Shown here one piece after another: positions 5,238 to 32,482 of a stretch of 62,361 nucleotides of DNA. This DNA is from Nitrososphaeria archaeon (GTDB lineage: Archaea; Thermoproteota; Nitrososphaeria_A; Caldarchaeales; JAVZCJ01). Below the pieces are notes generated by a model. It was not told the DNA's origin. It was given only the letters and a program-made list of their open reading frames with translations, and did not search any database. The position numbers were made by a program, and so were the translations under genes. The stretch spans positions 1 through 62,361 of the forward strand of contig JBGVSY010000120.1 in assembly GCA_041862235.1 (NCBI GenBank), written 5' to 3'. The number at the start of each line of letters is the position of its first letter. Within the stretch, counting starts at the first letter, position 1.

Positions 5238-5371
5238 CTTGCTTTCACCATGAACAGGTTTCGGGAAAACGGTTCCTGGCCGTTGAGATCTGTATTTAGT
5301 TAAGCTTTTCTCTCGAGCCTAGGTCTCCAGGCACCCAAAGACTCAAAAAGAGACAGACGCGGCTCTGCAGC

Positions 5372-7258
5372 ATGCGGACCCGAAACTCTGTTGAGTTTCA
5401 AGAGGAGTCGCTGAAGAAGGCTGTCTCCAAGGGTCAGAGCGTCTTGGACGCAGCCCTTTCTCTGGGCCTGGAGATCAACAGCCTCTGCGGCGGGAAGGGG
5501 CGGTGTGGAAAATGTGTGATAAGGATTCAGGGAGGCTCTGTGTCCCCGCCAACAGATTCGGAGAGACGACTCATTGGCAAGCGGTCGATAGGTGGCGGGT
5601 ATCGGCTCGCGTGTCAGGTCTTTCCAAGAGGGAGCGTCTCCGTCTCGATACCCGGTTCGTCTCGGCCTCAGGCAGCCAAGATTCTCACCTGGGGCTTAGA
5701 GCTGCCGGTGAGGATCCGTCCTCGAACGAGCAAGCTTCATGCGCGTCTCACGCGCCCAACGCTGCACGACCAGGCGTCGGACTTGGAGCGGGTGCTGGCT
5801 GCCGCACGGGCTAGGGTAATAGATCTGGACGTTCTTTCATCCCTTCCCTCAAGGATCAGGGAAGCAGGCTGGAATGTCACTCTCACCTCTCACTCGGGAG
5901 AAATCGTTGACGTGGAACCGGGGGATACGAGAGATGAACTCTACGGCCTGGCTGTGGACCTCGGAACCACTACGGTCGTCGCCTACTTGGTGGGGATGAA
6001 TGATGGTCATATCAAAGGCGTCGAGTCGGCTCTGAACGGTCAGGCTGTTCACGGGGAGGATGTTATCTCCAGGGTCGGGTTCGTGGCTGCAAAAACCCGG
6101 AGACTGCGCATAATGCAGCGCTTGGTGGTGGACACAGTTAACCACCTGATCACCAAACTCTGTCTTCGGTCAGGCGCGAGGGCGGAGAACATCTACGAAG
6201 TTGTCTGTGCCGGCAACACCATAATGACCAGCCTGTTTCTAGGAGTGGATCCGTCGAGCATCGCATCTGCCCCCTTTGCGCCGCCATTCAGAAGCGAAAT
6301 GCGAGCCAAGGCGAAGGACCTTGGCCTCCGGATCAACCCGTCAGCCTATGTCTACACAGTTCCCGTGGTCAGCGGGTACATCGGAGGGGACGTCGTCTGC
6401 GATACACTCGTGTCGGGTGTGCATCGGTCATCTGATCTCTGTCTTCTGGTCGATGTGGGGACAAACGGGGAGGTTGTCCTGGGATCCAAAGGACGGCTAC
6501 ACAGCGCTTCATGCGCCGCGGGCCCCGCCTTTGAGGGAGCCGAGATCACCTTCGGTATGCGCGCGGAGATAGGCGCGATTGAGAGGGTGATGATAGACCC
6601 TCAGAACCACCAGGTCTACTACAGAACGATCGGTGGCGAAAAGGCTAGAGGGCTCTGCGGGTCCGGGCTGGTCGACGCGATTGCTTGGATGCTCTTGTCG
6701 GGAGTGATTGATACAGGAGGCAAATTTGTCAGAGAACTCGAGACCGATCGGCTGAAGTTGAAGTCCGGGCAACCGAGCTTCGTCGTATCTTGGGCGCAAG
6801 AGAACTCGTTGGGAAAAGACATAGTTGTGACCCAAAAAGATGTTCGAAGTCTGCAGCTCGCAAAGGCCGCCATGTTCGCCGGCTGTTCCATGCTGATGAA
6901 GAGACGGAAGGTCTCATCGCGTGACATTCGTCGGGTGTACCTTGCAGGTGCGTTCGGAAACTACTTGGACCCTGCCTCAGCTTTGGTGATTGGCCTAATC
7001 CCGGAGATTCCTCTCGGCAGGATCAAACCGATTGGAAATGGGTCTGGTTTCGGGGCGAAGTTGTACTTGCTCTCGGAGCGACATAGGAAGGAGGCAGCCG
7101 AGATTGCGATCAACTCACGTCACGTCGAGCTAAGCGCTGAGCCCGCGTTTCAGAAGGAGTTTCTCGATGCCACCTATTTGCCTCACCGTGACACCGGCCT
7201 CTTTCCCAGGACGGTCAAAACGATCCGCCAGAGATCCATGGAGCCAAGGATTCCCTAG
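5372..7258 (+). CDS. reductive activator of corrinoid proteins (RACo/RamA-like; 2Fe-2S ferredoxin + ASKHA ATPase domain)
   Basis: The N-terminus has plant-type ferredoxin cysteines (CGGKGRCGKCVIR...C). A long ASKHA-like domain follows (AVDLGTTTVVAYL, LVDVGTNGEVVLG, GLCGSGLVDA). It is divergent from the corrinoid protein gene. Confidence 0.8.
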   Translation: MRTRNSVEFQEESLKKAVSKGQSVLDAALSLGLEINSLCGGKGRCGKCVIRIQGGSVSPPTDSERRLIGKRSIGGGYRLACQVFPRGSVSVSIPGSSRPQAAKILTWGLELPVRIRPRTSKLHARLTRPTLHDQASDLERVLAAARARVIDLDVLSSLPSRIREAGWNVTLTSHSGEIVDVEPGDTRDELYGLAVDLGTTTVVAYLVGMNDGHIKGVESALNGQAVHGEDVISRVGFVAAKTRRLRIMQRLVVDTVNHLITKLCLRSGARAENIYEVVCAGNTIMTSLFLGVDPSSIASAPFAPPFRSEMRAKAKDLGLRINPSAYVYTVPVVSGYIGGDVVCDTLVSGVHRSSDLCLLVDVGTNGEVVLGSKGRLHSASCAAGPAFEGAEITFGMRAEIGAIERVMIDPQNHQVYYRTIGGEKARGLCGSGLVDAIAWMLLSGVIDTGGKFVRELETDRLKLKSGQPSFVVSWAQENSLGKDIVVTQKDVRSLQLAKAAMFAGCSMLMKRRKVSSRDIRRVYLAGAFGNYLDPASALVIGLIPEIPLGRIKPIGNGSGFGAKLYLLSERHRKEAAEIAINSRHVELSAEPAFQKEFLDATYLPHRDTGLFPRTVKTIRQRSMEPRIP

Positions 7259-7314: not shown

Positions 7315-8133
7315 CTAGAGCAACACATCGAAGAAGAGCAGACCGGCGAGCGGGACAAATGCTGCCCCCCAGATGATGACACTCCACGACATGACCTTTT
7401 GCCCGTCGAGGGGAGGAACCGGCAACAGGTTGAAGACAGCTAGCAGAAGGTTGATACGATAGCCGATGCTGCCCACATTCGCCAGCACGCCGCCGAGTGG
7501 AATTAGCGCACGGAAACCCACTCCGACGGCAACGTTGGCCACTGCTCCCGAGAGAGATATCATCCCGCTCTCCCTTCTGGAGGGTCCCAAGGGTCTCTTG
7601 TGGCTCGGCAGGATGTAGACCGCTCCGGGGGCAGCGAAGAAGAATGTTCCCCCCGTTAGGACCGCTGTGGCAAGAGCTATGATTAGCCCGGACCACCATA
7701 GCTTGAACTGCGCCCACAGTCCATATCTTCGAGCTATAGACCTGTGAGCCAGTTCGTGAAGGAGGAACCCCGAGCCTATCGTGACGAGAGAGATGAGAAA
7801 GTACTCCAAGAAGATTGTGATGTCGTGAAGAAATCTGACCGAGTAGCAGAAAGAGATGCTGATCCAGGCGATCGCAAGATCCCTGAGTTCGCTCTGACGC
7901 CCTAGCACGGAGGCGACTCCTCTGACTCCGCGCTCCGAAGAGGCGCGGGGAACGGATATGGGTCCCTGCTCCCTTCTGCGTCCTCTCCGTTCAGTCTTCG
8001 GTCTTCTCAGCACATCAAGACCCTCGCAGTCATGACCTTCTGGGAGCCGGTGAAACTCGCAGAAAGATCTCCCGCAGTAGGAGCACGTAAAGGGAAGCAC
8101 GACTTCCTTGCCGCATAGACTGCACGTAGCCAA
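7315..8133 (-). CDS. AN1-type zinc finger fused to M50/site-2-protease-like membrane metalloprotease
   Basis: The N-terminal CSLCGKEVVLPFTCSYCGRSFCEFHRLPEGHDC follows the AN1 Cys/His pattern. The membrane part carries HELAH (HExxH) and a later LLPVPPLDG motif. The start is apparently TTG. Confidence 0.7.
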   Translation of the reverse strand: MATCSLCGKEVVLPFTCSYCGRSFCEFHRLPEGHDCEGLDVLRRPKTERRGRRREQGPISVPRASSERGVRGVASVLGRQSELRDLAIAWISISFCYSVRFLHDITIFLEYFLISLVTIGSGFLLHELAHRSIARRYGLWAQFKLWWSGLIIALATAVLTGGTFFFAAPGAVYILPSHKRPLGPSRRESGMISLSGAVANVAVGVGFRALIPLGGVLANVGSIGYRINLLLAVFNLLPVPPLDGQKVMSWSVIIWGAAFVPLAGLLFFDVLL

Positions 8134-8321
8134 TCTTGTGCGCAGCCTCCAACCTATTCTGTCAAGCCACTCCCTACTTGGCCGTTGTCAAAGTGAGCAG
8201 TGCGTGGGAATCCACTCATTTGATGGACCGATCGAGGGTGTTGATCGATAGTCGATAAGGTTCATAGCCTCTCTGCCTCTCGGTTACGCTCTTTCTAGAG
8301 GCTTCTGGATCTCTAAAAGGA

Positions 8322-8531
8322 TTAGACCTTTCCCTTGAATTCTTCGACAAATCTCTTGGCCTGGTACTCGAACTCCCTGCTTTCCACGACAACTTCGGAC
8401 TTCTCATCTTCTTGTGAAAGCGTTACCCTCACGTAGTTGTTTGGGTAGTCTCCAAAAAACACGCAGCAGCGGGTTCGTTCAGCTGTCTTCAAACCGACGT
8501 TCTTAGCAAAGTATTCAACAGCCTCATTCAA
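8322..8531 (-). CDS. hypothetical small protein (69 aa)
   Basis: The ORF has protein-like composition and a TTG start. An in-frame stop lies 29 codons upstream with no other start codon in between. I recognise no family. Confidence 0.35.
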   Translation of the reverse strand: MNEAVEYFAKNVGLKTAERTRCCVFFGDYPNNYVRVTLSQEDEKSEVVVESREFEYQAKRFVEEFKGKV

Positions 8532-8668
8532 TATCGATTCTTGATCCTTCTTAGTTTTGAAAGAAATGGCTATTACGGTCGCACACCCGCTCGAACACCG
8601 TATTCCTCACTCTATTATTCTTTCTCAAGTCACCCAATAAGACGATCGATCTTGCTGTTTTTCAGATT

Positions 8669-10282
8669 CTAGGTCGGTTTCTTTTTGGATTCCAGAAATC
8701 TCTCCAAGACTGACCTGACTTCCTTCTCTCCGACCGTCTTGATGTATGGACCTATCCTTGGACCGTGGTCGTCTCCCAGGAGGATCTGATAAAGAAGTCT
8801 GAACAGCGAACCGGGGCGGATCCCTCTGCCGCGGGCTGTAGAAAACACCGCCGCTTGAATCTCATCCTCTGTCGTCTCCGTGTGTAGAAAAACAACGAGG
8901 TCTTGGAGGGCCTGAACTTCTTGTTCAGTGGCCTCTACTCCTTCCTCCTGGACAGCGCCGAAGTCGTGAACCCAGTTCGCAACGTATTCAAGACATCTGT
9001 CTATGTTGGGGTGCAGTTCTTCATCGATGTAACCGTACTCCCTGAGCTTGTCTCGGACGTAGTCCCTCGACTGAGCAGTTGGAGCGACCTTCATCAGATG
9101 AGCGAGCAGCCTGTAGGGGATGTAGATGGGAGGCTCCTCCGGGGGATGGAGCAAGTGGCTATATTCGTAAAGTCCTCTGAGTTTCGCTCTTTCCTTCTCA
9201 TCCTTCACGACACTTCTTCCGGAATAGATCTGGCCGAGACGGTTCAATTCATCCATGTACTTCGGCACGTCGACTATGGAGATCTCTCGCGTTCCCTCAT
9301 ACCTTTTGAACATCAAGAGAAGCAGGGATTGCGCTGAGCCGTATCTGTACCAGAGCTGAGGCGTAAGCACGTTTCCAATCGACTTGGAGATCTTCCGGCC
9401 GCCCTTGTCCAGGAATATCTCGTATCTGATGTGATAGGGAGCGGGGGTTTGGAGTATCTCCTCGCAGACGCGGTCGTTTGCTCTGACAGAGTCTGCGATG
9501 TCTTTGCCGTATGCTTCGAAGTTTATCCCTAGCGCAGCCCACCTCACGGCGAACTCCGCTTTCCAAGCTACTTTTCCCTGTCCCTGGGTGAAGTCAGCTT
9601 CCCCTTTGTAACCGCATCCACGGAGCACTCTGCCTCTTACTGTGTCTCCCTCGCATTCGTAGAGGATCTTTCCCTCTCTTGGAATGTATCGCTTCGCTCT
9701 TGCCGTGTATATCCTCCCGCAGTTGGAGCAAACCGGCAGGTACGGAAGCTGAAGGAGGTACTTCTCTTGTCCGGTTTCCTCCTTGAAGATCTCTCCCGCC
9801 CTGTCTGCCTTCTCGAGTATCTTTCTGATGTAGGGAGTGAATGTTCCAGAGCGATACATCTCGGTTGCCGAAAGATGTGTGTACTCTATCCCCGCCTGGT
9901 CGAGGGCCTCAAGCAGGAGAGAGTTCATGTGTGAGGCGTAGCTTTCGTGGCAGGACCATGGATCTGCTATTGAGCTCACCGGGAAACCCAGGTACTCCTT
10001 GAGAGAGGGGGGAAGACCAGCTGGAACCCTGCGCAACCCGTCCATGTCGTCTGAATAAGCTATGAACTCAGACTTGTGTCCCTGATCTTGAAGCGAGAGC
10101 GCAACTCCGTGGGCTCGAGCTGCATCGCCGAAGCTTCCTATGTGGGGTACACCGGAAGAGCCAAAGCCGCTCTCGGTTCTTAGCACGGGGCTCCTTCTGT
10201 GAATTTTCATTTCTCTCTCAACGATGTCGCGTGCTAGCTTGTCCAGCCAAGTGCCTCTTCCTATTATCTCGGGTTTGGGCAT
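8669..10282 (-). CDS. lysK: lysine--tRNA ligase, class I
   Basis: It has a class I HIGH-type motif (PHIGSFGD) and a KMSKS-type motif (KISKSIGN). Length and layout fit archaeal class I LysRS. Confidence 0.9.
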   Translation of the reverse strand: MPKPEIIGRGTWLDKLARDIVEREMKIHRRSPVLRTESGFGSSGVPHIGSFGDAARAHGVALSLQDQGHKSEFIAYSDDMDGLRRVPAGLPPSLKEYLGFPVSSIADPWSCHESYASHMNSLLLEALDQAGIEYTHLSATEMYRSGTFTPYIRKILEKADRAGEIFKEETGQEKYLLQLPYLPVCSNCGRIYTARAKRYIPREGKILYECEGDTVRGRVLRGCGYKGEADFTQGQGKVAWKAEFAVRWAALGINFEAYGKDIADSVRANDRVCEEILQTPAPYHIRYEIFLDKGGRKISKSIGNVLTPQLWYRYGSAQSLLLLMFKRYEGTREISIVDVPKYMDELNRLGQIYSGRSVVKDEKERAKLRGLYEYSHLLHPPEEPPIYIPYRLLAHLMKVAPTAQSRDYVRDKLREYGYIDEELHPNIDRCLEYVANWVHDFGAVQEEGVEATEQEVQALQDLVVFLHTETTEDEIQAAVFSTARGRGIRPGSLFRLLYQILLGDDHGPRIGPYIKTVGEKEVRSVLERFLESKKKPT

Positions 10283-22573: not shown

Positions 22574-23185
22574 CTAGGTCTTGGTTGCTCTCACAACCAC
22601 TAGGCGTTCGAAGAAGAGTCTGGTCTCTCCGACTATTTGGGTCCTGCAGCCCAGTCTCTCCATTTCTCGAAGGGGCTCTTCTATGCCGGAGGACGAGGAG
22701 AGAACCATCCATACCGAACCTCCCGGTTCCAGGTGTTGAACCGCCTGTCGGATAAATCGAAGTAATGTTTCTGTTCCGCGCTCGCCACCTGCCCAAGCCC
22801 GGTCCTCGATCCTCTGGTGAACCCACATCTCCTCTTGAAGGTACGGGGGGTTAGAAACGATCGCCGAGAATCTCTTGCCAGTTCGGATGGGTTCGAGGCC
22901 GTTGGAGCAGACCACGTCGATTTTCCGGCTCAGCAGGTTCAGTTCTGCGTTGCAATGAGCACACCGTGCTGCAGCGGGATTGATGTCCGTCGCCAGCACA
23001 AACCCAGCTGTTCGAGCCACTTCCAAGGCAAGTATCCCCGAACCGGTGCCGATGTCCGCCAGCACAAATCCCAATTGTGCTCTTTCTCGGATGATGCAGT
23101 CCAGGATGAGGTAGGTGTCTTGTCCCGGGGGGTATACGCCGTCGAGGAGCCTCAGCGTTGTCGGTCCCTGACGCCTCACTTTCAA
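22574..23185 (-). CDS. HemK/Mtq2-like SAM-dependent methyltransferase (N5-glutamine type)
   Basis: It has SAM motif I (LADIGTGSGILAL) and the catalytic NPPY tetrapeptide (IVSNPPY). Confidence 0.7.
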   Translation of the reverse strand: MKVRRQGPTTLRLLDGVYPPGQDTYLILDCIIRERAQLGFVLADIGTGSGILALEVARTAGFVLATDINPAAARCAHCNAELNLLSRKIDVVCSNGLEPIRTGKRFSAIVSNPPYLQEEMWVHQRIEDRAWAGGERGTETLLRFIRQAVQHLEPGGSVWMVLSSSSGIEEPLREMERLGCRTQIVGETRLFFERLVVVRATKT

Positions 23186-23225
23186 CAGACAGGCACTGTC
23201 CCTTCGAGGTATTGACTAGACTGGC

Positions 23226-24521
23226 CTAGGGATAGATTCTGGTAGGGGTTCGAGGAAAGAGGCTTGCGTCCCTGATATGTCGCAGACCCAGAAGCCATCT
23301 GACCGTTCGCTCTATCCCCAACCCGAAGCCGCTGTGAGGCACGGAGCCGTACCGCCTAAGGTCGAGGTACCACTCGTAGTCCTCAGGGTTGAGGCCCCAA
23401 GACTCTATGCTCTCAACAAGCTGGTTGTAATCATGAATCCTCTGCCCTCCCCCGATTATCTCTCCATATCCACCGGGGGCAAGGAGGTCCGCACAACGGA
23501 GGACGCGGGGATCTTTGGGATCCCACATGTGGTAGAAGGTGCCCTTGGCCTCCCTGGGGTAGGAGGTCACAAAGAATGGCTTCTCGAATTCCTTGGAGAG
23601 AACGGTCTCTTCATCTGCCCCCAAATCGTCTCCCCACTCCAGTTCCATGCCTCTCCGCCTTATTGTATCAAGAGCCTCTGTGTAGCTTATCCTTGGATAG
23701 GGTGGCTCTACCGCCTCTGTGTCGATCTGTTTTCGCAGAAACCTGAGCTCGGCTTGACAGCGACGGACGACCTCCTTGACGGCAAGGCTCACAAGCTCCT
23801 CCTGCAGACTCATGATATCGTCCAGGTCGGCGAAGGCCACCTCGGCTTCAAGATGAGTGAACTCCGTGAGATGCCTGGGGGTCCTGCTCTTCTCTGCTCT
23901 AAAGCTCGGCTGAAGCGAGTAGACTCTCTCCAAGCCGAAGATCGCTGCCTCTTGGTAGAGCTGAACGCTCTGCGTCAGATACGCTGTTTTGCCGAAGTAA
24001 TCGACGGGGAACAAGGTTGCGCCTCCCTCGACGGCAGCTGTGACAAGAGTGGGACACTGTATCTCGTAGAAGCCTCTCTCGTCCAAGCAATTGAGGACTC
24101 CTTGCACGAAGGCGGACTTCGCCTTCATGAAAGCTGCAACCCTTGGGCTACGCAGGTGCAGGTGACGGTGGTCGAGTTGGAAGCGAACGCTCGCCCCCTT
24201 CCTTATCGGAAATTCCCCGATGGAGCGCCCTATGGGTTCCATGGATAAGCAGTGTATCTCGGATCCCCCGGGCGCCCTCTCATCCTTCTTCACAACCCCA
24301 CGAAGCTTCACAGACGACTCTGTTTTGATCTCTGACGCCAGGCTCATGCTGTCGGGGTCCGATACTCCCTTCTTGAAAGCGACCTGCAGAAGCCCCTTCG
24401 AGTCTCTGATGGTCAGAAACACTACGCCGCCGTGCAGTCTTCTAGTGTAGATCCAGGCCATCAGCTCCACCTCTGAGCCTTCAGGCATGCTGAACACGTC
24501 GGAGGTGAAAGTCTTCTTCAA
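23226..24521 (-). CDS. asnS: asparagine--tRNA ligase
   Basis: It is a class IIb aaRS with an N-terminal OB fold and motifs 2 and 3 (FRAEKSRTPRHLTEFTHLE; GFGLGIERTV). The YEWYLDLRRYGSVPHSGFGLG block is AsnRS-typical rather than AspRS-typical. Confidence 0.85.
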   Translation of the reverse strand: MKKTFTSDVFSMPEGSEVELMAWIYTRRLHGGVVFLTIRDSKGLLQVAFKKGVSDPDSMSLASEIKTESSVKLRGVVKKDERAPGGSEIHCLSMEPIGRSIGEFPIRKGASVRFQLDHRHLHLRSPRVAAFMKAKSAFVQGVLNCLDERGFYEIQCPTLVTAAVEGGATLFPVDYFGKTAYLTQSVQLYQEAAIFGLERVYSLQPSFRAEKSRTPRHLTEFTHLEAEVAFADLDDIMSLQEELVSLAVKEVVRRCQAELRFLRKQIDTEAVEPPYPRISYTEALDTIRRRGMELEWGDDLGADEETVLSKEFEKPFFVTSYPREAKGTFYHMWDPKDPRVLRCADLLAPGGYGEIIGGGQRIHDYNQLVESIESWGLNPEDYEWYLDLRRYGSVPHSGFGLGIERTVRWLLGLRHIRDASLFPRTPTRIYP

Positions 24522-24693
24522 TCCGCTCTACACTCCGATGCGTGGCGTAGGGGAAGCGGCGGACGCTTTATGCTTTTCACAGAAAACCTGCGCTCGATGT
24601 GACTCAACTTTGTGGTCCAGCGAAAGGCGAGTCAAGGTAGGGGGTGAACAACTCGATGATCAGAATTGGGGGGGCGCCATTCGTCCCTCGACG

Positions 24694-25503
24694 CTATCCG
24701 ACCTTTAGCTTCTTCCACACTAGTATGGTTGCGTATTCTCTTCTGATGCCCTCGTTCTGCACAGCGTTGGCGATGTTCGTCTGCAGAATTGTGTCCACTT
24801 TCTCTCCGTAGACACTCCCGTATCTGCTTTTCATCTCTTCGTAAAGTTCATTTGGTATCTGCGTGGAAACTGTGCGCTGATCTATTCGCTGAGGAAGCTC
24901 ATCCAACTCGCGGATTCTGGAGTCCACCTCTTTGATCCTTTCTCTAAGTTCGAACAATCTCTGCCTGAGGACGGGTATCTGAGCCTCAAGCTCTTCTCTC
25001 GCTCCCACCTCTATCGTTTTGCCTCCGCTCTCCTTCTCCTTCATCTGAAGTGTGTTAAGCTCTATCGTCGAAAGGTACAACTCTTCTTCCGTCGTCGCAA
25101 AGCTGCTCTCCAGCTTGCCCTTTGCAGCCTGGAACTTGTTCTTGACTGCAGCTGAGTCCTGCACTATCGCTTCTCGAGACTCGTCCCATCTGGAGATGAT
25201 CTTCTTCGCCACTCCCACACTTATGTCCTGATCTCTGAACATTCTCTGGAAGACTGTGTCCCTGAGCTTGATGTCATTCATGCGAGACAGTAGGGCCTCG
25301 TAGCTGCTTTTCGCCTCTTCCAAGTCCCTTTCAGGTGTGGCCTCTGGCTTGGACACACCTTCCTCAGCCTTTTCCACAACCTGAACGGATTCCTTGCCCT
25401 CTTCCTGAGCCGGTTCCTCCTTGCCCTCACTCTCTACGGAGGGTGCCTCTTCCTCCCGCGAAACCGTCTCGTCCCTTATTACTATCTTCCTAGGCATCTT
25501 CAA
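24694..25503 (-). CDS. coiled-coil protein with acidic N-terminal region, co-transcribed with the JAMM gene
   Basis: The N-terminus is Glu/Lys-rich and low complexity. Long heptad-like helices follow (ELEAQIPVLRQRLFELRERIKEVDSRIRELDE). The start (TTG 25503 or ATG 25497) is 1-7 nt after the JAMM stop. Confidence 0.6.
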   Translation of the reverse strand: MKMPRKIVIRDETVSREEEAPSVESEGKEEPAQEEGKESVQVVEKAEEGVSKPEATPERDLEEAKSSYEALLSRMNDIKLRDTVFQRMFRDQDISVGVAKKIISRWDESREAIVQDSAAVKNKFQAAKGKLESSFATTEEELYLSTIELNTLQMKEKESGGKTIEVGAREELEAQIPVLRQRLFELRERIKEVDSRIRELDELPQRIDQRTVSTQIPNELYEEMKSRYGSVYGEKVDTILQTNIANAVQNEGIRREYATILVWKKLKVG

Positions 25504-25504
25504 G

Positions 25505-26287
25505 CTACCCTATCGCGAATATGAAAGCTACGAGCACCATGATTGCGACCGCTGCCAAGGCCATTGCGATCAAACCCTTGACAGAGCCGATTCTAAGCAA
25601 TAGATACTCCGCAAAGCTCGTAGGAATGCCTGCATTCCCTACAGGGTCAAGTAGGCGGTCGACACCATCTACATTGACCAGCTGCTCCAGGCCGGAACTA
25701 TCATCCCCCAGATCCTTTTCGATCGATCGATCGATCGTCAAACCCTGGTCAGGCTTGAAATCAACGTCAAGAACATGCCTTATGTCAAGCGTACTGAGAC
25801 CATAGAGAGTGCTCTGAAGTACCTTGTTGCGCCCAGCACCCACTGATACCACGTTTTGGAGCACTTGGCCCCTCTTGCCGAGCCTGAACACCCTGAACCT
25901 CAGGTCTGAGATCTGCCTTGTAGTCTTGTATATTATGGGGTCTATCACAAGGGCCACAGCCTTGGGAAAGAGAGCTTGGTACCTTCTCTGAGTCTCTATG
26001 TCTATTCCAGAAAGGAACAGACCCATTCCCGGGTGAGAATGGTACCAACCAACAACGTAGAGGCCGCTGGTCTCCTCCCTCAGCTTCTCAGCGACATCGG
26101 CTTGAACTTCCTCGTGCAGCTCGACATAGCCAGGATTTCCTCGTTGCCTTCCAGTCACGGCGTCCCATACCTCCAAAACTGATCCTTGCATTTTCCCTAC
26201 TAGGAGCCCGATCACTTCTCTTCGAACATTGGTCAAGGAGTGCTTCAAGATCTTTCCGAGGGCCAGCGGATAGATCCGGGTCTTCAT
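25505..26287 (-). CDS. JAB1/MPN/Mov34 (JAMM, Rpn11-like) metalloisopeptidase with C-terminal TM anchor
   Basis: A conserved Glu (REVIGLLVG) precedes the JAMM site, WYHSHPGMGLFLSGIDIETQ (H-x-H-x7-S-x2-D). The last 23 residues (GLIAMALAAVAIMVLVAFIFAIG) form a hydrophobic helix. Confidence 0.85.
   Translation of the reverse strand: MKTRIYPLALGKILKHSLTNVRREVIGLLVGKMQGSVLEVWDAVTGRQRGNPGYVELHEEVQADVAEKLREETSGLYVVGWYHSHPGMGLFLSGIDIETQRRYQALFPKAVALVIDPIIYKTTRQISDLRFRVFRLGKRGQVLQNVVSVGAGRNKVLQSTLYGLSTLDIRHVLDVDFKPDQGLTIDRSIEKDLGDDSSGLEQLVNVDGVDRLLDPVGNAGIPTSFAEYLLLRIGSVKGLIAMALAAVAIMVLVAFIFAIG
25720..25737. repeat. (CGAT)4CG palindromic run inside the JAMM gene
   Basis: It reads cgatcgatcgatcgatcg. 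This is the longest instance of the window-wide GATCGATC motif. Confidence 0.9.
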
Positions 26288-26325
26288 GAATATCTCCTGG
26301 CGAACCGCGAGAACGAAAACGCGAC

Positions 26326-26340
26326 GCCTATATATCTTTG
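26326..26340 (-). promoter_or_regulatory. candidate TATA box for the JAMM operon
   Basis: TATATAT at 26330-26336 lies about 45 nt upstream of the minus-strand ATG at 26287. Confidence 0.35.
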
Positions 26341-26659
26341 TGATGTGTAGAGCTTGTCAGTGACCCCGATTCCAGCGCGTTTTCACCTCCACTTTTCGTC
26401 CCAATTCCTGATTTCAGGCCTGATATCCGCGGTATCGATGATTGGGGCGAAAAATCGGCGATAGACCACTGCCCAATTCAGTCGATCCAAGGAACAGCTC
26501 GAAGATTCTGGACGGGGCGCCTTCCTGGGTAAGACTTCGAGATTTCCTGAATAGTAAGCTGAGAGCCGGTTGCCGAAAACCTTTAGGCGGGCTCCGTAAA
26601 GCTAATAGGGGCGGTTAGGCGGCGAACGGGAAACTGGCGTGTTTCCACAAGATGGCACA

Positions 26660-26700
26660 GTTGCGATAAAGCTTGACTCCCGTGCGATACGCTAATAACC
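26660..26700 (+). promoter_or_regulatory. candidate promoter region of the ubiquitin operon
   Basis: Two A/T-rich boxes, GATAAAG (26665-26671) and TAATAA (26693-26698), lie 40-73 nt upstream of the TTG start at 26738. I cannot say which one is used. Confidence 0.3.
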
Positions 26701-26737
26701 TGGTCGCCGGACCGACTTGCAAGGACTCGGATGAGAA

Positions 26738-26974
26738 TTGAAGATCAAGGTAGTACCTGCGGTGGGCGGCGGAAGCCCTCTGGAACTGGATGTGGCCCCT
26801 ACAGCTACGGTTGGCGCGGTGAAGACGAAAGTCTGTGCGATCAAGAGACTGCCTCCGGACACGACGAGGCTCACATACAAGGGACGGGCACTCAAGGACA
26901 CGGACAATCTGTCGAGCCTCGGTGTGGCTGAAGGAGACAAATTGGTGCTGATAACAAGAACAGTAGGCGGCTAA
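26738..26974 (+). CDS. ubiquitin homologue (78 aa) terminating in Gly-Gly
   Basis: It aligns end to end with eukaryotic ubiquitin: MKIKV/MQIFV, LELDVAPTATVGAVKTKV/LEVEPSDTIENVKAKI, PPDTTRLTYKGRALKD/PPDQQRLIFAGKQLED, and LVLITRTVGG-stop/LHLVLRLRGG. The start is TTG. Confidence 0.85.
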   Translation: MKIKVVPAVGGGSPLELDVAPTATVGAVKTKVCAIKRLPPDTTRLTYKGRALKDTDNLSSLGVAEGDKLVLITRTVGG

Positions 26975-26978
26975 TCCC

Positions 26979-27482
26979 TTGCAGACCGTGGCTGAGCTGC
27001 CTGAAGTGATGTGGGAAAAGAGATTAGCCCTAGAGTACAGGCAGCTCAGGGAGCACGAACCGCTCTTTGACCTAGTAGAGAACGACCTTACTCACTACAT
27101 GGGAGTGATAGCGGGATCCAGTCTCTACGATGATGGCTACTTCAAGGTCGAGATCTTCCTGCCTCGAAGCTTTCCTTTCATACCACCTAACATAATCTGG
27201 CACACTCGAATCTGGCATCCGAACTTCTCTGACGACCTCCCTGCTCGAATATGCGAATCGATTTTCAAGGAAGATTGGTCTCCTTCCGTTCACGTGTACG
27301 CCATAATTGAAGCCCTCCGTAGCCTTGTAACGGACCCTAACCCCGACGACCCGCTGAACGGCATGGCTGCCATGGAGATGAAGTATAGACCAGACATGTT
27401 TCGTGCACATGTGCTCCAGTACGTGGAGTGCTATGCCACTCCAGAGCAGGCGTTCTACGACGTCGGCTGGAGAATATCCTAG
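26979..27482 (+). CDS. ubiquitin-conjugating enzyme (E2, UBC fold)
   Basis: UBC hallmarks are RLALEYRQL, YDDGYFKVEIFLPRSFPFIPPNIIWHTRIWHPNF (HPN motif), ARICESIF (catalytic Cys), WSPS and DPNPDDPLN. The start is 4 nt after the ubiquitin stop; the start codon is uncertain (TTG 26979, GTG 26988 or ATG 27009). Confidence 0.85.
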   Translation: MQTVAELPEVMWEKRLALEYRQLREHEPLFDLVENDLTHYMGVIAGSSLYDDGYFKVEIFLPRSFPFIPPNIIWHTRIWHPNFSDDLPARICESIFKEDWSPSVHVYAIIEALRSLVTDPNPDDPLNGMAAMEMKYRPDMFRAHVLQYVECYATPEQAFYDVGWRIS

Positions 27483-28652
27483 TTGTGCCCCTCGGACATG
27501 GAACGCTACGATAGGCAGCTGCGGGTCAAAGGTTGGGATCAGAGGAAACTCCAGGGATCGATGGCTCTCGTTGTGGGAGTTGGGGCCATAGGCTGCGAGG
27601 TGGCGAAGAATCTCGGCCTCATGGGCATCGGCTCTCTGATCCTGGTTGACAGCGACCGTGTTGAGGTTTCAAACCTGAGTAGGCAGATGCTTTTCGCAGA
27701 GAGAGATGTGGGACGGCCGAAAGCTATCGTCGCCAAGAGAAGGATCAGAGCCATGAACCCAGACGCTAAGATAACTGCCCATCACGTCCGCGTGCAGGAT
27801 ATCGCTCAGGCAAAGCTTGAGAAGGCGGATGTGATCTGTTCATGCGTCGACAATTGGGCGACCCGCCGCTGGCTGAACTCCTCTGCCGTAGAGCTTGGGA
27901 AGCCCATGGTTGACGGCGCCATGGATGGGATGTATGGTAACGTCCAGGTCATCATACCAGGGGAAACCGCTTGCGTCGAGTGTCACGGCGACACGCTGAT
28001 TCCTAGTGATGTGCAGCTCGCTGAGTGCACTCTGAAGAAAAGGACCCCTCAGGATCTGGTGAGGGACCTAGGAGAAGAAGGAACTGAAATCGACCAATCG
28101 TTCGCCGTGAAGTTGTATGCAGCTGGGTTCAAGACGATCTACGACCTCAAGTATGCCACGTCTGAGCACATGGGGAGGCTCGGCGAGGCCGACGCTCAAC
28201 GCGTGACTGCTTTGCAGGAGAAGCTAATGCCTCCCATGCCCGCCTTGCAGACCGTGGCTGCCGTTGTTGCTGGTATCCAATCTCAAGAAGTTGTGAAGCT
28301 CCTAGAGGGAAATGCGATCGGCCGAACCAAGGATGGGCTGATGGTCTACGACGCCGTCAACGAGACTTTCTCTTCCGTTGAGCTGGACAGAAATCGGGAC
28401 TGCTTTGTCTGCGGCGAGTACTACAATACCGGATACCTGACGTTCCAGGTTCAGCTCCGTGAGAAGGTTGAGGACCTCAAGAGGAGGATTGCAGAGTCCT
28501 TCGGCTACCCAGACCCAGACGTGCAGTTCAGGACAAAGATTCTCAGAGACGAGGAGGCGCTTTCGGAAGCAAATATTAAGGACGGCGACCTCATACATGT
28601 CCACACGAGTAGGAGGCTAAGTCCGCTCACCCTCAAGCTCAGTGCTGAATAG
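27483..28652 (+). CDS. ubiquitin-activating enzyme (E1-like, ThiF/MoeB/Uba family) with C-terminal beta-grasp-like extension
   Basis: Motifs are YDRQLR, the nucleotide loop VVGVGAIGCEVAKNLGLMGIG..LVDSD.VEVSNLSRQ, paired CxxC (CVEC, CFVC), and a candidate catalytic Cys in AECTLKK. It directly abuts the E2 stop (TTG 27483 or ATG 27498). Confidence 0.85.
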   Translation: MCPSDMERYDRQLRVKGWDQRKLQGSMALVVGVGAIGCEVAKNLGLMGIGSLILVDSDRVEVSNLSRQMLFAERDVGRPKAIVAKRRIRAMNPDAKITAHHVRVQDIAQAKLEKADVICSCVDNWATRRWLNSSAVELGKPMVDGAMDGMYGNVQVIIPGETACVECHGDTLIPSDVQLAECTLKKRTPQDLVRDLGEEGTEIDQSFAVKLYAAGFKTIYDLKYATSEHMGRLGEADAQRVTALQEKLMPPMPALQTVAAVVAGIQSQEVVKLLEGNAIGRTKDGLMVYDAVNETFSSVELDRNRDCFVCGEYYNTGYLTFQVQLREKVEDLKRRIAESFGYPDPDVQFRTKILRDEEALSEANIKDGDLIHVHTSRRLSPLTLKLSAE

Positions 28653-28655
28653 GAT

Positions 28656-28913
28656 GTGTTTCAAGTGAGGATAGAGGTGAAAGAAGGGAAGAGCCTGGGG
28701 CTATGGGACTGGGGAGAAAAAGCGTCGAGGAAGCAGCGGAAGAGAGGCAGGCTGGTCTGTGCTGTGTGCACGCTGCCGATGAACCGAACAGATGAGAGGT
28801 ACTCTTGCCCTCACTGCCGCGCGGAGGGACACTACCAATGCTTCGTGGAATGGCTTAACGTCAAGGGTACGTGCCCCTACTGCAGACGACCCGTCATAGA
28901 GGTAATAGTATGA
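28656..28913 (+). CDS. small RING-type zinc finger protein (C4HC3; candidate E3)
   Basis: The pattern is C-x2-C-x12-C-x2-C-x4-H-x2-C-x10-C-x2-C (CAVC...CPHC...HYQC FVEW ... CPYC), with the conserved Trp after H-x2-C as in RING-H2 fingers. The GTG start is 3 nt after the E1 stop. Confidence 0.75.
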   Translation: MFQVRIEVKEGKSLGLWDWGEKASRKQRKRGRLVCAVCTLPMNRTDERYSCPHCRAEGHYQCFVEWLNVKGTCPYCRRPVIEVIV

Positions 28914-29257
28914 GTGACGAAGATGTCTTTGAGCTGGAGCTGTCCTATGTAGAAACGCCCAAGGGAAAGGTGTCGGCCCATGAAACCAGCAAAAAGATCG
29001 CCGAGGCAATACTCATGATTCAAGAAGAGAATAGAAAGCTAGAGGAAAGGATTAGGCAGATAGAGCAGAGGGGCGGAACCCTTCAAGGCACCGAGGAACT
29101 CAAGAAGGAGCTCGCCAACATCCACAAGGAGTTAGAGGACGTCATGGCTCAGCTGGATGCCTTGAAGGATGCTTTCCAGGAAATCATAGAAACCATGAGA
29201 GGCGCAAAGGAGGATCAACCCCCAGAGAGCGAGCCGGAGCAAGCTGTTCTTCGCTAG
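28910..29257 (+). CDS. small coiled-coil protein, translationally coupled to the RING gene
   Basis: Its ATG overlaps the RING stop (ATGA). The product is a single long Glu/Lys/Leu-rich helix (EENRKLEERIRQIEQRGG...ELKKELANIHKELEDVMAQLDALKDAF). Confidence 0.6.
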   Translation: MSDEDVFELELSYVETPKGKVSAHETSKKIAEAILMIQEENRKLEERIRQIEQRGGTLQGTEELKKELANIHKELEDVMAQLDALKDAFQEIIETMRGAKEDQPPESEPEQAVLR

Positions 29258-30111
29258 GGCTTAAGAACCGCTTCCCTCATTTCCCTTACTATCTTTTCCA
29301 GTCTGTTTCTTGTCTTCTCCAAATCGGCTATGTCGGATCTGATCGAGTCTCTTCTCTTCTCCAGCTTCACGAGTTCAGCGTTTGCTTCGCTGAGTCTCTC
29401 CTCTGCCTCTTCTGCTTTTTTCTCCCTCTCCTGGAGCCGCACCACAGCGTCAGCTAGCTCCTTTTCTTTGCGCACGAGACGCTCCAGCCTCAGCTCCCTG
29501 AACTTGAATGACCTGTCGAGCCTCCTGATTTGATCGTCAAGCTGGCCTTTGGATTCTTCGAGCTTCTTCAGGTAGCCATTACTCAACTCCTTGATTTCTG
29601 CGTCCAGCTCAGATTTGCGGCTCTCAAGCTTCTCCAAGTTCTCCTTCGCGGAAAGGAACGCCTGCTCCTTCTCCTGGGTCTCCCTCCTCCACGTCGCCAA
29701 CTCATCCCTCAGCTTCTTCAACTCCTCTCTTTCCTGAGCCAACTTGTCCACGTCTTTCCTCACCATCTCGCGTTCCTTTCCGAGGACGTCGATGAGGTTG
29801 TGCAGACCCTCCTGAATGGACATCACTCTCACCTCATAGTCCTGAACAGCGGACAGAGCGGCCGACAAGCTATCTACCCTTTGCAACATGGTCTGAATAC
29901 GGCTGATCGATTCTTGGGAGATCTCGCTCTGCTGAGGCATCTTCTCCATCCTTGTCGAGAGCCCCTTGACACTATCCTCAACTCCCCCTACCTTGTCATC
30001 AAGTTCTGAAATGGATTCACGAATGCTGGAGAGGTAGTTTTCAAGCTCCTTCGGCAGGTCGCTCTTGCCTCCAAAAAGCTTGCTACCCAAGGGGTTCCAC
30101 CAAGCTACCAT
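29254..30111 (-). CDS. long coiled-coil protein (285 aa)
   Basis: It shows heptad-rich Glu/Lys/Leu/Arg composition throughout. It is convergent with the ubiquitin operon, and the 3' ends overlap by 4 nt. Confidence 0.6.
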   Translation of the reverse strand: MVAWWNPLGSKLFGGKSDLPKELENYLSSIRESISELDDKVGGVEDSVKGLSTRMEKMPQQSEISQESISRIQTMLQRVDSLSAALSAVQDYEVRVMSIQEGLHNLIDVLGKEREMVRKDVDKLAQEREELKKLRDELATWRRETQEKEQAFLSAKENLEKLESRKSELDAEIKELSNGYLKKLEESKGQLDDQIRRLDRSFKFRELRLERLVRKEKELADAVVRLQEREKKAEEAEERLSEANAELVKLEKRRDSIRSDIADLEKTRNRLEKIVREMREAVLKP

Positions 30112-30224
30112 TCTCCGATTGGAGGACCATATAAAAACCTGTTGTTTCCCTAGGGTGGAATGTACTCAGGCTGAAAACGTTTATATCAAAACGGCCGAGA
30201 CCTCGGGCGTAAAAGCCCACAGAG

Positions 30225-31013
30225 TTGGTTTCCGTGTATCTTGGCGTACAGGAGGCCGAGAGAAGGCTCTTCAGGATGGCCCTGATCGCGGGGGTAGTTG
30301 GTTTCATCAATATCGCCAGCCTCTTTCTGAGCTGGTATGTCCATACAGCTGAGAACCTCCAGTCGGAACCGATCATGGGATACATGCGGGTTGAGACGCT
30401 GGCCCTCTCGCTGTTTGGGGGAGTTGTCGCAAGCGCGAGTGCTCTCTCATCTTGGTTAGCGAAGAGACTGAAGCAAATCAAGAGGGCAGAGTCAAGCCTG
30501 GCCCTGGTGGGCGGGGTCATGTCGATCCTCTCCCCCATCGTGATGATCACGAGGATTGTTCCCGGGTTGGAGGAGGCAGGAGGAGGCGGCTATTTCGACG
30601 TGGGGTTGTTCGTCTCAGCGATCTCTGCCGCTGCCGTGGTCCTTGTCGGAGTTTTCATATCGCTCATACCAGTGAGTGCTGAGGAGCCTCGATCGATCGT
30701 GTCCGTTGCTGTGCCTTCGCCCTCACGCCGGACTGCAACTTCGACAACTTTTCCGCCGGCGTTGCTGACCGAGGCTCCCCCTATAGAGAGGCGCCGCGAG
30801 GTGAGAACAGTCGTGATGGAATCGGTAGACGAGCTAGTCGAAGGAGCCATGTGCACGATTTGCTACCAGCCTCTGGAATTGGGGTCCACTGTGAAGTGCT
30901 CGGCTTGTGCAGCTCTCTACCACCAAGGATGTGTGGACGTGTGGGTCGACCTGAACGGAATCTGCCCTAACTGCAAGAATCCCGTGGAGACAACGTACCC
31001 CCGGGAAGAGTAA
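30225..31013 (+). CDS. multi-pass membrane protein with C-terminal RING-type (C4HC3) zinc finger
   Basis: It has about four TM helices, a Ser/Pro/Thr linker, and then C-x2-C-x11-C-x2-C-x4-H-x2-C-x10-C-x2-C (CTIC...CSAC...HQGC VDVW...CPNC). The cysteine spacing is nearly identical to 28656..28913. The likely start is ATG 30276, preceded by GGAGG. Confidence 0.7.
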   Translation: MVSVYLGVQEAERRLFRMALIAGVVGFINIASLFLSWYVHTAENLQSEPIMGYMRVETLALSLFGGVVASASALSSWLAKRLKQIKRAESSLALVGGVMSILSPIVMITRIVPGLEEAGGGGYFDVGLFVSAISAAAVVLVGVFISLIPVSAEEPRSIVSVAVPSPSRRTATSTTFPPALLTEAPPIERRREVRTVVMESVDELVEGAMCTICYQPLELGSTVKCSACAALYHQGCVDVWVDLNGICPNCKNPVETTYPREE

Positions 31014-31018
31014 ATAGA

Positions 31019-32482
31019 TTAGCCCGATGGAAACGAGACCTTCTCCCGAATGTGGCCAAGAACCGCGTCGACACCAGTCCTATCCTGCAGCATTGTGTCC
31101 CTGTCCCTAACGGTCACTGTCTTATCTTCCATAGTCTGGTAGTCGACAGTCACGCAGCAAGGAGTTCCCACTTCGTCTTGTCTTCGGTACCTTCTGCCGA
31201 TGCTTCCACTGTCATCATAGAACACGTCGAAGCTCGTGCGCAACATGTTGTGGATTCTCTTCGCCTCATCGGGGAGCCCCTTTCTGTTGACCAGGGGAAA
31301 CACTGCTACCTGAATGGGAGCTAGGTATGGAGGCACCTTGAGAACGACCCTCTCCTTTTCTCTGGTCAAGCTGTGCTCCATGATGGAGTAGACGGTCCTA
31401 TCTATGCCCATGGACAATTCGAAGACGTGAGGAAGAACCTTTCCCTCATCCATGATGGCAAGGTCTCTGCCGCTTTCCCTTGCGTGGCCTCGGAGGTCGT
31501 AGTCAGTACGGTAGTTGCACGCCACCAGCTCCAGCCAACCCAGACTGGTTCTAACCTCCAAGTCCCAGCCCTGCTCAGCGTAGAATGCTCTTTCCTCAGC
31601 ACCCATCTCTCTATACCGCATTTCACTTCCCGGAATACCGGTCTTGTCGTAGAATTGCTGCAGCAGGGCCATGTAGTAGGCGATCAATTCGTTGGCTATC
31701 AGACCCTCCTTGACCGCCTGCTTGCAGCTAAACGGCTTTGTCTCACTGCTGTCGAGCGGCTGGATGGATAACTCATAGTCCTCAACGAGTCTGAACTTGT
31801 GGTAGTCTCCCGCTTTCGCCGGGTTGAAGAAGATCTCAATCTCAGCCTGGATCATTTCTCTCAGTCTTATCAAACCTTGACGCGGCGAGATTTCGTTCCT
31901 GAAGCTTCTTCCAACTTGGGCGAGAGCAGCAGGCAGCTTGCATCTCATTGTCCTGAAGACTCGGGGAAAGTCAAGGAAGATACTCTGGCACGTCTCCGGA
32001 CGGAGATAGGCCGGAGCCGCCTCTCTTGCCCCAACACCCAGCTTGAACATCATGTTGAATCTCCTAGTTTTCGATAGTTGGCCTCCGCACTTGGGGCATC
32101 GGGCCTGGTTCTTCTCCAGAAGTCCGTCAAGCTCCTTCTCTGACAGCTTCTCCGGAACCAATGCGCCGATGATCTGCTCGATCAACTTGTCAGCCCTATG
32201 GACGCTGCCACACCTAAGGCACTCGACAACGGGATCCGCGAAGCCTTTCAGGTGTCCGCTCGCTGCAAAGACGCGTTCAGGCAAGATTACGGAGCCATCC
32301 ACTTCCAGCATGCCATCTCTTCTAACCATTTCCCTTCTCCACAGCTCAACCACCCTGTTCTTCAGAGAAACGCCTAGGGGACCATACTCCCAGAAACCAG
32401 CCAGCGCGTCTCCATAGATCTCAGCGGCAGGAAAGAAGAAGCACCTTTCCAAAGCCAGCTTGGCAACTTCTTCGTAGCCCAC
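31019..32482 (-). CDS. glyS: glycine--tRNA ligase (archaeal/eukaryotic alpha2 type)
   Basis: Motifs are AEIYGDALAGFWEYGPLG, class II motif 2 (FRNEISPRQGLIRLREMIQAEIEIF), ELSMGIDR, and a C-terminal anticodon-binding domain. The start is GTG. Confidence 0.85.
   Translation of the reverse strand: MGYEEVAKLALERCFFFPAAEIYGDALAGFWEYGPLGVSLKNRVVELWRREMVRRDGMLEVDGSVILPERVFAASGHLKGFADPVVECLRCGSVHRADKLIEQIIGALVPEKLSEKELDGLLEKNQARCPKCGGQLSKTRRFNMMFKLGVGAREAAPAYLRPETCQSIFLDFPRVFRTMRCKLPAALAQVGRSFRNEISPRQGLIRLREMIQAEIEIFFNPAKAGDYHKFRLVEDYELSIQPLDSSETKPFSCKQAVKEGLIANELIAYYMALLQQFYDKTGIPGSEMRYREMGAEERAFYAEQGWDLEVRTSLGWLELVACNYRTDYDLRGHARESGRDLAIMDEGKVLPHVFELSMGIDRTVYSIMEHSLTREKERVVLKVPPYLAPIQVAVFPLVNRKGLPDEAKRIHNMLRTSFDVFYDDSGSIGRRYRRQDEVGTPCCVTVDYQTMEDKTVTVRDRDTMLQDRTGVDAVLGHIREKVSFPSG

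Follow-up and report, generated by a model that had tools for sequence, protein, structure and literature searches.

A Caldarchaeales ubiquitylation gene cluster orthologous to that of Candidatus Caldiarchaeum subterraneum, with a predicted membrane-anchored Rpn11 homologue

The ubiquitylation cluster

The window, i.e., the whole stretch of 62,361 nucleotides that was analysed (contig JBGVSY010000120.1 of a Nitrososphaeria archaeon), carries at positions 25505 to 28913 five genes for ubiquitin, an activating enzyme (E1), a conjugating enzyme (E2), a small RING finger protein (srfp) and a JAMM isopeptidase similar to Rpn11. With a probability of about 0.9, we consider this locus to be a eukaryote-type ubiquitylation system of the Caldarchaeales ("Aigarchaeota"), orthologous to the cascade reconstituted for Candidatus Caldiarchaeum subterraneum. 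A known system was here identified correctly, in a lineage new to it; the significance attached to it in an earlier note, made from the DNA alone, was overstated, since the system has already been described, reconstituted and crystallised (PMC3082918, PMC5654768, PMC6043591).

By analogy with the C. subterraneum cascade, E1 would adenylate Gly78 of ubiquitin, hold the ubiquitin as a thioester on Cys182 and hand it over to Cys92 of E2. The srfp would bind the ubiquitin-charged E2 and stimulate discharge onto substrate lysines, and the Rpn11-like JAMM metalloprotease would take the ubiquitin off again. The genes for these components are as follows, with Pfam curated cut-offs employed as the criterion for domain membership.

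25505..26287, minus strand: Rpn11-like JAMM/MPN+ isopeptidase, 260 aa; PF01398 (JAB), 67 bits against a cut-off of 22.5
26738..26974, plus strand: ubiquitin, 78 aa, encoded in mature form; PF00240, 51.3 bits against a cut-off of 25.4
26979..27482, plus strand: UBC-fold E2, 167 aa, catalytic Cys92; PF00179 (UQ_con), 95.2 bits against a cut-off of 27
27483..28652, plus strand: E1, 389 aa; PF00899 (ThiF), 211.8 bits against a cut-off of 28.1
28656..28913, plus strand: srfp, 85 aa, E3-like component; zf-RING_2 (PF13639), 29.9 bits against a cut-off of 27.3

All five genes claimed in the earlier note were recovered at their coordinates from the open reading frame (ORF) list for window positions 23000-31500, and in the profile search named beforehand all five products lie above the curated cut-offs. 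Between the ubiquitin, E2, E1 and RING genes the spacing is 4, 0 and 3 nt, in agreement with the note, and the four genes form one co-directional, tightly spaced operon. None of the core genes has an intron, and they overlap or abut. The start codons of the four plus-strand genes (26738, 26979, 27483, 28656) are TTG, TTG, TTG and GTG, and these non-ATG starts align with the N-termini of orthologues. C. subterraneum (CSUB_C1473-C1477) has the same five components in the same order with the same divergent orientation of the JAMM gene, so that the match in gene content proposed at the outset is borne out. Identity to C. subterraneum or a C. subterraneum-like contig is 77% for ubiquitin, 61% for E2, 49% for E1, 33% for RING and ~53% for the JAMM core.

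Components of the cascade

The ubiquitin ORF ends in LITRTVGG followed by the stop codon, so that the terminal G77-G78 leaves a C-terminal Gly-Gly available for activation. The best single-domain match in the PDB is the C. subterraneum ubiquitin, CsUb (6fj7; expectation value E 1e-40). The alignment with eukaryotic ubiquitin over the whole length, as first described, did not hold, since only residues 12-78 align with human ubiquitin, with 34% identity over 67 residues. The ubiquitin terminates exactly at Gly-Gly in 34 of 73 loci, the others having tails of 2-20 residues, and the idea of a GG-terminated ubiquitin as a special feature of the window was dropped on this count. As the ubiquitin is encoded already mature, JAMM would be needed only for deconjugation in the window's lineage.

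The motifs reported for the E2 were located at residues 80-82 (HPN), 92 (Cys) and 100-102 (WSP). UBE2K matches with E 1.6e-22, with HPN and the catalytic cysteine in register with those of the window protein. The AlphaFold2 (AF2) model, built with 18 homologues, has a predicted local distance difference test score (pLDDT) of 89.2 and a predicted template modelling score (pTM) of 0.82. It superposes on UbcH5-type E2s (UbcH5a) with template modelling (TM) scores of 0.8-0.89 and root-mean-square deviations of 1.6-2.0 Å. In the predicted model the protein is thus UBC-like, and the alignment of Cys92 to the catalytic cysteine of UBE2K agrees with the expectation of a UBC fold with its cysteine in the canonical position.

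The E1 consists of a ThiF adenylation domain, a catalytic-Cys insert with Cys182, two CxxC zinc pairs and a C-terminal ubiquitin-like domain, the latter belonging to the ubiquitin family (PF00240, 33.5 bits against a cut-off of 25.4, residues 319-377). The nucleotide-binding loop and the other motifs claimed for it are present, namely GVGAIG (32-37), NLSRQ (64-68), CVEC (164-167) and CFVC (307-310), together with the further adenylation motifs VDSD (55-58) and DNWATR (123-128). Among PDB entries, the E1 is most similar to the active adenylation domain of yeast Uba1 (E 1.3e-39); UBA7 is also found, and both rank ahead of ThiF and MoeB. Cys182, in the context AECTLKK, aligns with the motif LCTLRS of yeast Uba1, which we take to hold the catalytic cysteine of that enzyme.

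The srfp has a C4HC3 RING finger, as had been proposed, with the ligands C35, C38, C51, C54, H59, C62, C73 and C76 in the pattern C-X2-C-X12-C-X2-C-X4-H-X2-C-X10-C-X2-C. Its PDB matches, RNF24 (E 2e-8), EL5 and RLIM, are all RING-H2 ligases. Residues typical of an E2 interface were recognised, as judged from sequence, at V37 between the first and second cysteine ligands, W66, and R77 after the eighth ligand. The positions of published srfp/E2 mutants (I30, W58, R69, P67/Y68) have a numbering that could not be mapped unambiguously onto the C. subterraneum-like sequence. The RING gene was missed entirely by the public gene caller in the sister contigs L076 and L077.

In the JAMM protein, E24 and H83-x-H85-x7-S93-x2-D96 make up the intact site that had been described, and these zinc-site residues (E, HxHx7Sx2D) are invariant in all 120 of 120 homologue clusters. 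In the PDB it is closest to CsRpn11 (6fju, E 1.5e-64), with eukaryotic Rpn11 (~1e-20) and CSN5 (~1e-14) next in rank. Judged by these matches, the window protein is nearer Rpn11/CSN5 than the JAMM1/JAMM2-type prokaryotic JAMMs.

Distribution in the Caldarchaeales

The distribution was scanned with the E2 as query and one genome per species. E2 was found in 69 species-level loci, all of them from Caldarchaeales, in the genera Caldarchaeum, Wolframiiraptor, Terraquivivens, Geocrenenecus, Pelearchaeum, Benthortus and Calditenuis. The E2 homologues at 52-73% identity all come from Candidatus Caldiarchaeum/Caldarchaeum or from other metagenome-assembled genomes of Caldarchaeales/Nitrososphaerota. 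The best E2 identity among the species representatives is 71%, so that the window's organism is not among them. The order ubiquitin-E2-E1-RING is shared by C. subterraneum and ~45 other loci, and a divergent JAMM gene lies opposite the ubiquitin operon in ~55 loci. In earlier work, all six Aigarchaeota bins analysed by Hua et al. (2018) contained the full set (PMC6053391).

The clusters show some variation. The Calditenuaceae-type loci (L054-L071) keep JAMM, ubiquitin, E2, E1 and the helical protein CCup described below, and within 3.5 kb downstream of their E1 no RING, small coiled-coil, CC285 or TM-RING gene was found. Their E3, if any, would therefore be encoded elsewhere. The E2 and E1 genes, which abut elsewhere, are separated in two Terraquivivens genomes by ~2 kb (L040, ~7500-9519) and ~0.9 kb (L045, ~7500-8364). 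In locus L079, whose E2 is 72% identical to that of the window, three genes are inserted between the JAB and ubiquitin genes (4623-6405), one for a homing-endonuclease-like LAGLIDADG_3 protein (230 aa), an ORF of 37 aa and one for a PNPOx-like protein (194 aa). Evidently, the divergent spacer between JAMM and ubiquitin tolerates insertion.

Weighing the identification

Several points weigh against the identification or limit it. The enzymatic steps are all carried over to the window's organism by orthology. Compared with the characterised proteins, E1 has moderate and RING low identity (the 49% and 33% given above), and srfp clears its Pfam cut-off narrowly. Even for the C. subterraneum model system, the native substrates are stated to be unknown (PMC5654768). 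With regard to the membrane, the anchor of the JAMM protein described below is predicted from hydropathy alone; it is labile in evolution and perhaps dispensable, as the nearest relative of the JAMM core (in L079) has no transmembrane helix.

The first alternative is a system of SAMP/Urm1/ThiS-MoaD type, in which an E1-like adenylyltransferase would serve a sulfur carrier or modifier and the E2-like and RING-like ORFs would be incidental. The E1 does match the MoeB, ThiF and SAMP-activating E1 models of NCBIfam, but far below the cut-offs (UbaA, 123 bits against 450), and the JAMM protein weakly matches the NCBIfam haloarchaeal desampylase model (24.7 bits against 130). The modifier itself decides differently, as it matches PF00240 and gives no match to ThiS, MoaD or Urm1 at E<=1, which settles in favour of ubiquitin a point on which the first identification could have failed. 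The E1 is nearest to Uba1 and UBA7, and its Cys insert and C-terminal ubiquitin-like domain are not found in MoeB/ThiF. Moreover, the operon holds E2 and RING in tight coupling, and most of the order has kept them. We regard a SAMP-type system as very improbable.

Equally improbable is a bacterial-style anti-phage conjugation module, similar to Bil or CBASS Cap2/Cap3 and acquired horizontally as a defence island. PADLOC models gave a match of the E1 to the ThiF part of Cap2-type "E1-E2" models (best E 2e-24) and a weak match of the JAMM protein to JAB models (E ~2e-5). The E1 matches cover the generic adenylation domain only, however, and ubiquitin, E2 and RING have no PADLOC match. E1 and E2 are separate proteins of eukaryotic type, the synteny with housekeeping genes extends across 69 genomes, the guanine plus cytosine (GC) content of the cluster (0.53-0.54) is like that of the whole window (0.548) and, in line with the earlier description, no mobile-element genes were seen among the flanking genes. 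The defence-island reading was rejected on PADLOC, distribution and synteny.

That the cassette stems from eukaryotic contamination, from chimeric assembly or from a eukaryote by very recent transfer is the weakest of the three readings: E2, E1 and RING do have eukaryotic proteins as their best matches of solved structure, but identity to eukaryotic proteins is only ~30-34%, the genes are intron-less and abutting or overlapping with TTG/GTG starts, the flanks are archaeal (class I lysyl-tRNA synthetase (LysRS), GatE, tRNA-intron endonuclease, Ftr, CofE), contigs from separate assemblies of three other sequencing runs carry the same sequence at 99.3-100% nucleotide identity, and orthologous clusters are found throughout the Caldarchaeales at 50-85% identity. 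The contig is hence archaeal and not chimeric, the layout being the same in the contigs of the three other runs (99-100% at the nucleotide level) and in 69 other genomes. Taken together, the archaeal flanks, the independent assemblies and the lack of a PADLOC match for ubiquitin, E2 and RING lead us to exclude contamination, chimerism and a defence-island origin, and the orthology to the C. subterraneum cascade is retained as the explanation of the locus.

A predicted membrane anchor on the Rpn11 homologue

The JAMM protein of the window ends in a hydrophobic C-terminal helix (residues 239-257, LIAMALAAVAIMVLVAFIF) with a mean Kyte-Doolittle hydropathy of 3.04 over 19 residues. The Rpn11 homologue is therefore predicted to be tail-anchored by a C-terminal transmembrane helix, a feature that the earlier note had overlooked. 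Such a helix is present in 15 of the 120 JAMM homologue clusters (P0030-P0044, 255-266 aa), with the zinc site intact in all of them, while the other 105 clusters are ~200-245 aa in length and lack it. The anchored proteins fall into two groups, a GC-rich one including the window and an AT-rich one from loci at 27-28% GC, and a motif SFxEY(L/I)LLxI just before the transmembrane helix is common to both. The AT-rich anchored loci (L004-L007) keep the same gene order as the window, which has 55% GC. The JAMM core of L079, without the helix, is 67% identical to that of the window, while the AT-rich anchored group reaches ~52%. As L079 is nearer than the AT-rich anchored group, the history of the anchor involves either a single loss, or more than one gain or loss.

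The non-anchored Rpn11 homologues were surveyed for their tails in the JAMM genes of loci L010-L074 and in clusters P0045-P0149. Short basic C-terminal tails, e.g., LLGKAKKLFG, VIKKFKEKL or LIEKAKRIMRGKK, are frequent among them, and a simple basic-tail pattern is matched by 61 of the 105 non-anchored clusters. These tails look amphipathic and might be a membrane- or partner-binding motif. We would liken the LLGKAKKLFG type to the amphipathic membrane-targeting sequences of MinD. By extension, the basic tails of other Caldarchaeales Rpn11s, including the "soluble" CsRpn11, may form an amphipathic membrane-targeting helix; if this is true, membrane association would be ancestral for the system.

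Conserved neighbours of the cluster

The conserved block exceeds the five genes to which the earlier note was confined, as four further conserved genes lie around the core. The neighbours were examined by BLAST of the window products against the ORFs of all fetched loci, and most loci of the Caldarchaeaceae and Wolframiiraptoraceae types have the same neighbours in unchanged order. JAMM and a helical protein are encoded on one strand, ubiquitin, E2, E1, RING and a small coiled-coil protein on the other, followed by a second coiled-coil protein (CC285) and a membrane RING protein. These genes and the intervening regions are listed below.

24694..25503, minus strand: "CCup", conserved helical protein, 269 aa; orthologues beside the JAMM gene in ~35 Caldarchaeales loci
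26288..26737, no strand: divergent intergenic (promoter) region, 450 nt, between the JAMM operon and the ubiquitin operon
28910..29257, plus strand: "CC115", small coiled-coil protein, 115 aa; orthologues after the RING gene in ~36 loci including C. subterraneum
29254..30111, minus strand: "CC285", conserved coiled-coil protein, 285 aa, convergent with the operon; orthologues at the same position in ~38 loci
30225..31013, plus strand: "TM-RING", polytopic membrane protein, 262 aa, 3-4 transmembrane helices; zf-RING_2, 35 bits
31019-32482, minus strand: gene for a protein like glycyl-tRNA synthetase (GlyRS), after the TM-RING gene

CCup starts 1 nt after the JAMM stop codon and is accordingly co-operonic and translationally coupled with the JAMM gene. 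The protein has an N-terminal PKKIVIR motif, an acidic disordered N-terminal region or linker, a three-helix bundle and a conserved C-terminal IPREYAxIxxWK. Its AF2 model (pLDDT 68), obtained from a shallow alignment of five close sequences and showing the three-helix bundle, had no significant Foldseek neighbour, the best being at E 0.09 with TM <=0.45; with so few sequences, this negative is a weak one. The ATG of CC115 overlaps the stop codon of the RING gene (ATGA, 28910-28913), which makes it the fifth gene of the plus-strand operon, and the same start is called in the sister contigs. The orthologues of CC115 and CC285 hold the same positions from C. subterraneum to Wolframiiraptor.

The alignments indicate that these helical and coiled-coil neighbours are genuine conserved families. 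Pfam scans of the individual members and a profile search of the PDB returned generic coiled-coil noise only for CCup, CC115 and CC285, and their assignment to ESCRT-III/Snf7, PspA, CdvA or another known family was rejected on this ground. TM-RING has a C-terminal RING at residues 210-250 (C210...C250) with the same C4HC3 pattern as srfp, to which it is paralogous (E 4e-9). Its orthologues occupy the same position in 33 loci, with 3-5 predicted transmembrane helices (mostly 4) and an invariant RING ligand pattern, and it is a candidate for a second, membrane-bound E3. CCup, CC115 and CC285 are candidate partners or substrates of the ubiquitylation system. The literature that was searched, which did not extend to the supplementary figures of PMC5654768, makes no mention of a membrane-anchored archaeal Rpn11, a membrane RING neighbour or the coiled-coil neighbours.

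We infer membrane insertion from hydropathy, and any role of the extra genes from conserved synteny. With a tail anchor, deubiquitylation would be restricted to the membrane's cytoplasmic side, and a membrane-bound E3 is probably provided by the polytopic RING protein conserved next to the cluster. The combination of tail anchor and membrane RING neighbour suggests that at least part of the ubiquitin cycle is membrane-associated in the window's lineage. A wider proposal, which we put forward tentatively and hold to be rather doubtful, is a ubiquitin cycle at the cytoplasmic membrane in which the anchored Rpn11, the four-helix RING E3 and the three helical or coiled-coil proteins would act on membrane or membrane-proximal substrates. 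If true, it would be a prokaryotic counterpart of the ubiquitylation of eukaryotic membrane proteins in the style of endoplasmic-reticulum-associated degradation (ERAD) or endosomal sorting.

Genomic setting

The placement of the cluster between asnS and glyS, as first reported, needs a correction. Aminoacyl-tRNA synthetase (aaRS) genes are indeed found on both sides, but they do not flank it directly, since the four further conserved genes intervene. The flanks are archaeal housekeeping and C1-metabolism genes, including a class II aaRS of D/K/N type, the GlyRS-like class II aaRS, class I LysRS, GatE, tRNA-intron endonuclease, Ftr, CofE and the corrinoid activase RACo; the occurrence of Ftr, CofE and a corrinoid C1 gene in the same stretch had already been pointed out. 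Coding in the window is dense and prokaryote-style, and no tRNA and no Rfam match was found in it. The GlyRS-like gene is on the minus strand in the window and on the same strand as the operon in ~30 other loci, which implies a local inversion in the window's lineage.

The 450-nt spacer between JAMM and ubiquitin (26288-26737) is long, those of other loci being 65 to 437 nt and typically 100-250 nt. It resembles neither the fetched loci nor any other part of the window, it has no Rfam match, and folding z-scores of 0.09 and 1.24 give no signal of RNA structure; a hidden gene, a repeat and a structured RNA were rejected for these reasons. The spacer looks like a long divergent promoter region. 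A scan for bacterial promoters and terminators showed no enrichment, the models being bacterial and unsuited to an archaeon.

Comparison with known ubiquitin and ubiquitin-like systems

An archaeal ubiquitin operon is important evidence for archaeal roots of eukaryotic ubiquitin signalling, which has already been argued from Caldiarchaeum and Asgard archaea. To this the present analysis adds breadth, the cluster being essentially order-wide in the Caldarchaeales, with or without a ubiquitin pro-peptide and with or without an adjacent RING gene. It further adds a natural variant, a predicted membrane-tethered deubiquitinase in one clade, and a larger gene block with a membrane RING protein and three helical proteins. 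The co-conserved genes are concrete candidates for partners or substrates in archaeal ubiquitylation.

The system closest to that of the window is the one of C. subterraneum. Its operon, with the reverse-strand Rpn11 gene and the RING ligand pattern, was described by Nunoura et al. (2011; PMC3082918). Hennell James et al. (2017) reported that Rpn11 removes the ubiquitin pro-peptide and that the GG-terminated ubiquitin is activated by E1 and passed to E2, while ubiquitylation of a substrate needs E1, E2 and srfp together; Rad50, the surrogate substrate in the reconstitution, was modified on lysines in its coiled-coil regions (PMC5654768). The structures of CsUb and CsRpn11 were solved by Fuchs et al. 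(2018), who also demonstrated deconjugation (PMC6043591). CsRpn11 cleaves both pro-ubiquitin and conjugates (PMC5654768, PMC6043591). The C. subterraneum E1 has the same C-terminal ubiquitin-like domain as the window E1 (PMC5654768), the downstream coiled-coil genes are common to both, and the RING ligand pattern is equal except for the first spacer, which is X12 in the window and X11 in CSUB_C1477 (PMC3082918). CsUb, however, is a pro-protein whose tail after Gly-Gly is removed by Rpn11, while the window's ubiquitin stops at Gly-Gly. CsRpn11, at ~200 aa, is described as soluble, while the JAMM protein of the window has 260 aa and the predicted transmembrane helix. The JAMM-ubiquitin spacer of 450 nt likewise departs from the usual 100-250 nt.

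The Asgard clusters likewise comprise ubiquitin, E1, E2, a RING E3 and an MPN/JAB deubiquitinase of eukaryotic type, according to the part of the accounts of Spang (2015) and Zaremba-Niedzwiedzka (2017) summarised in PMC5654768 and PMC11188069. They differ in their ties to ESCRT-I/II and UEV components and in their greater diversification (PMC11188069). By similarity comparison, the window proteins group with Caldarchaeales sequences only.

All folds and catalytic motifs are shared with the eukaryotic system (Uba1, UbcH5/UBE2K, RING-H2 E3s and proteasomal Rpn11). The window differs in that the components are encoded in a single compact operon, with the low identity given above. Its E1 is a 389-aa protein with a single set of domains, whereas the eukaryotic E1 is pseudo-dimeric with ~1000 aa, and its Rpn11 homologue is free-standing and predicted to be membrane-anchored, whereas eukaryotic Rpn11 is part of the proteasome lid.

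The SAMP/UbaA/JAMM1 (HvJAMM1) systems likewise have a β-grasp modifier ending in Gly-Gly, an E1 of the ThiF family and a JAMM isopeptidase. They lack E2 and E3, their modifier is of ThiS/MoaD type and their E1 is without a Cys domain and a ubiquitin-like domain. The distinction from the E1-only SAMP/Urm1 systems, drawn earlier from the dedicated E2 and RING finger, is upheld by the PF00240 modifier and by the presence of E2 and RING in the operon. Finally, the bacterial Bil and CBASS Cap2/Cap3 systems (PMC10557695) likewise encode E1, E2 and JAB activities together. These are defence-island systems with often fused E1-E2 and no RING, whereas in the window E1 and E2 are separate proteins.

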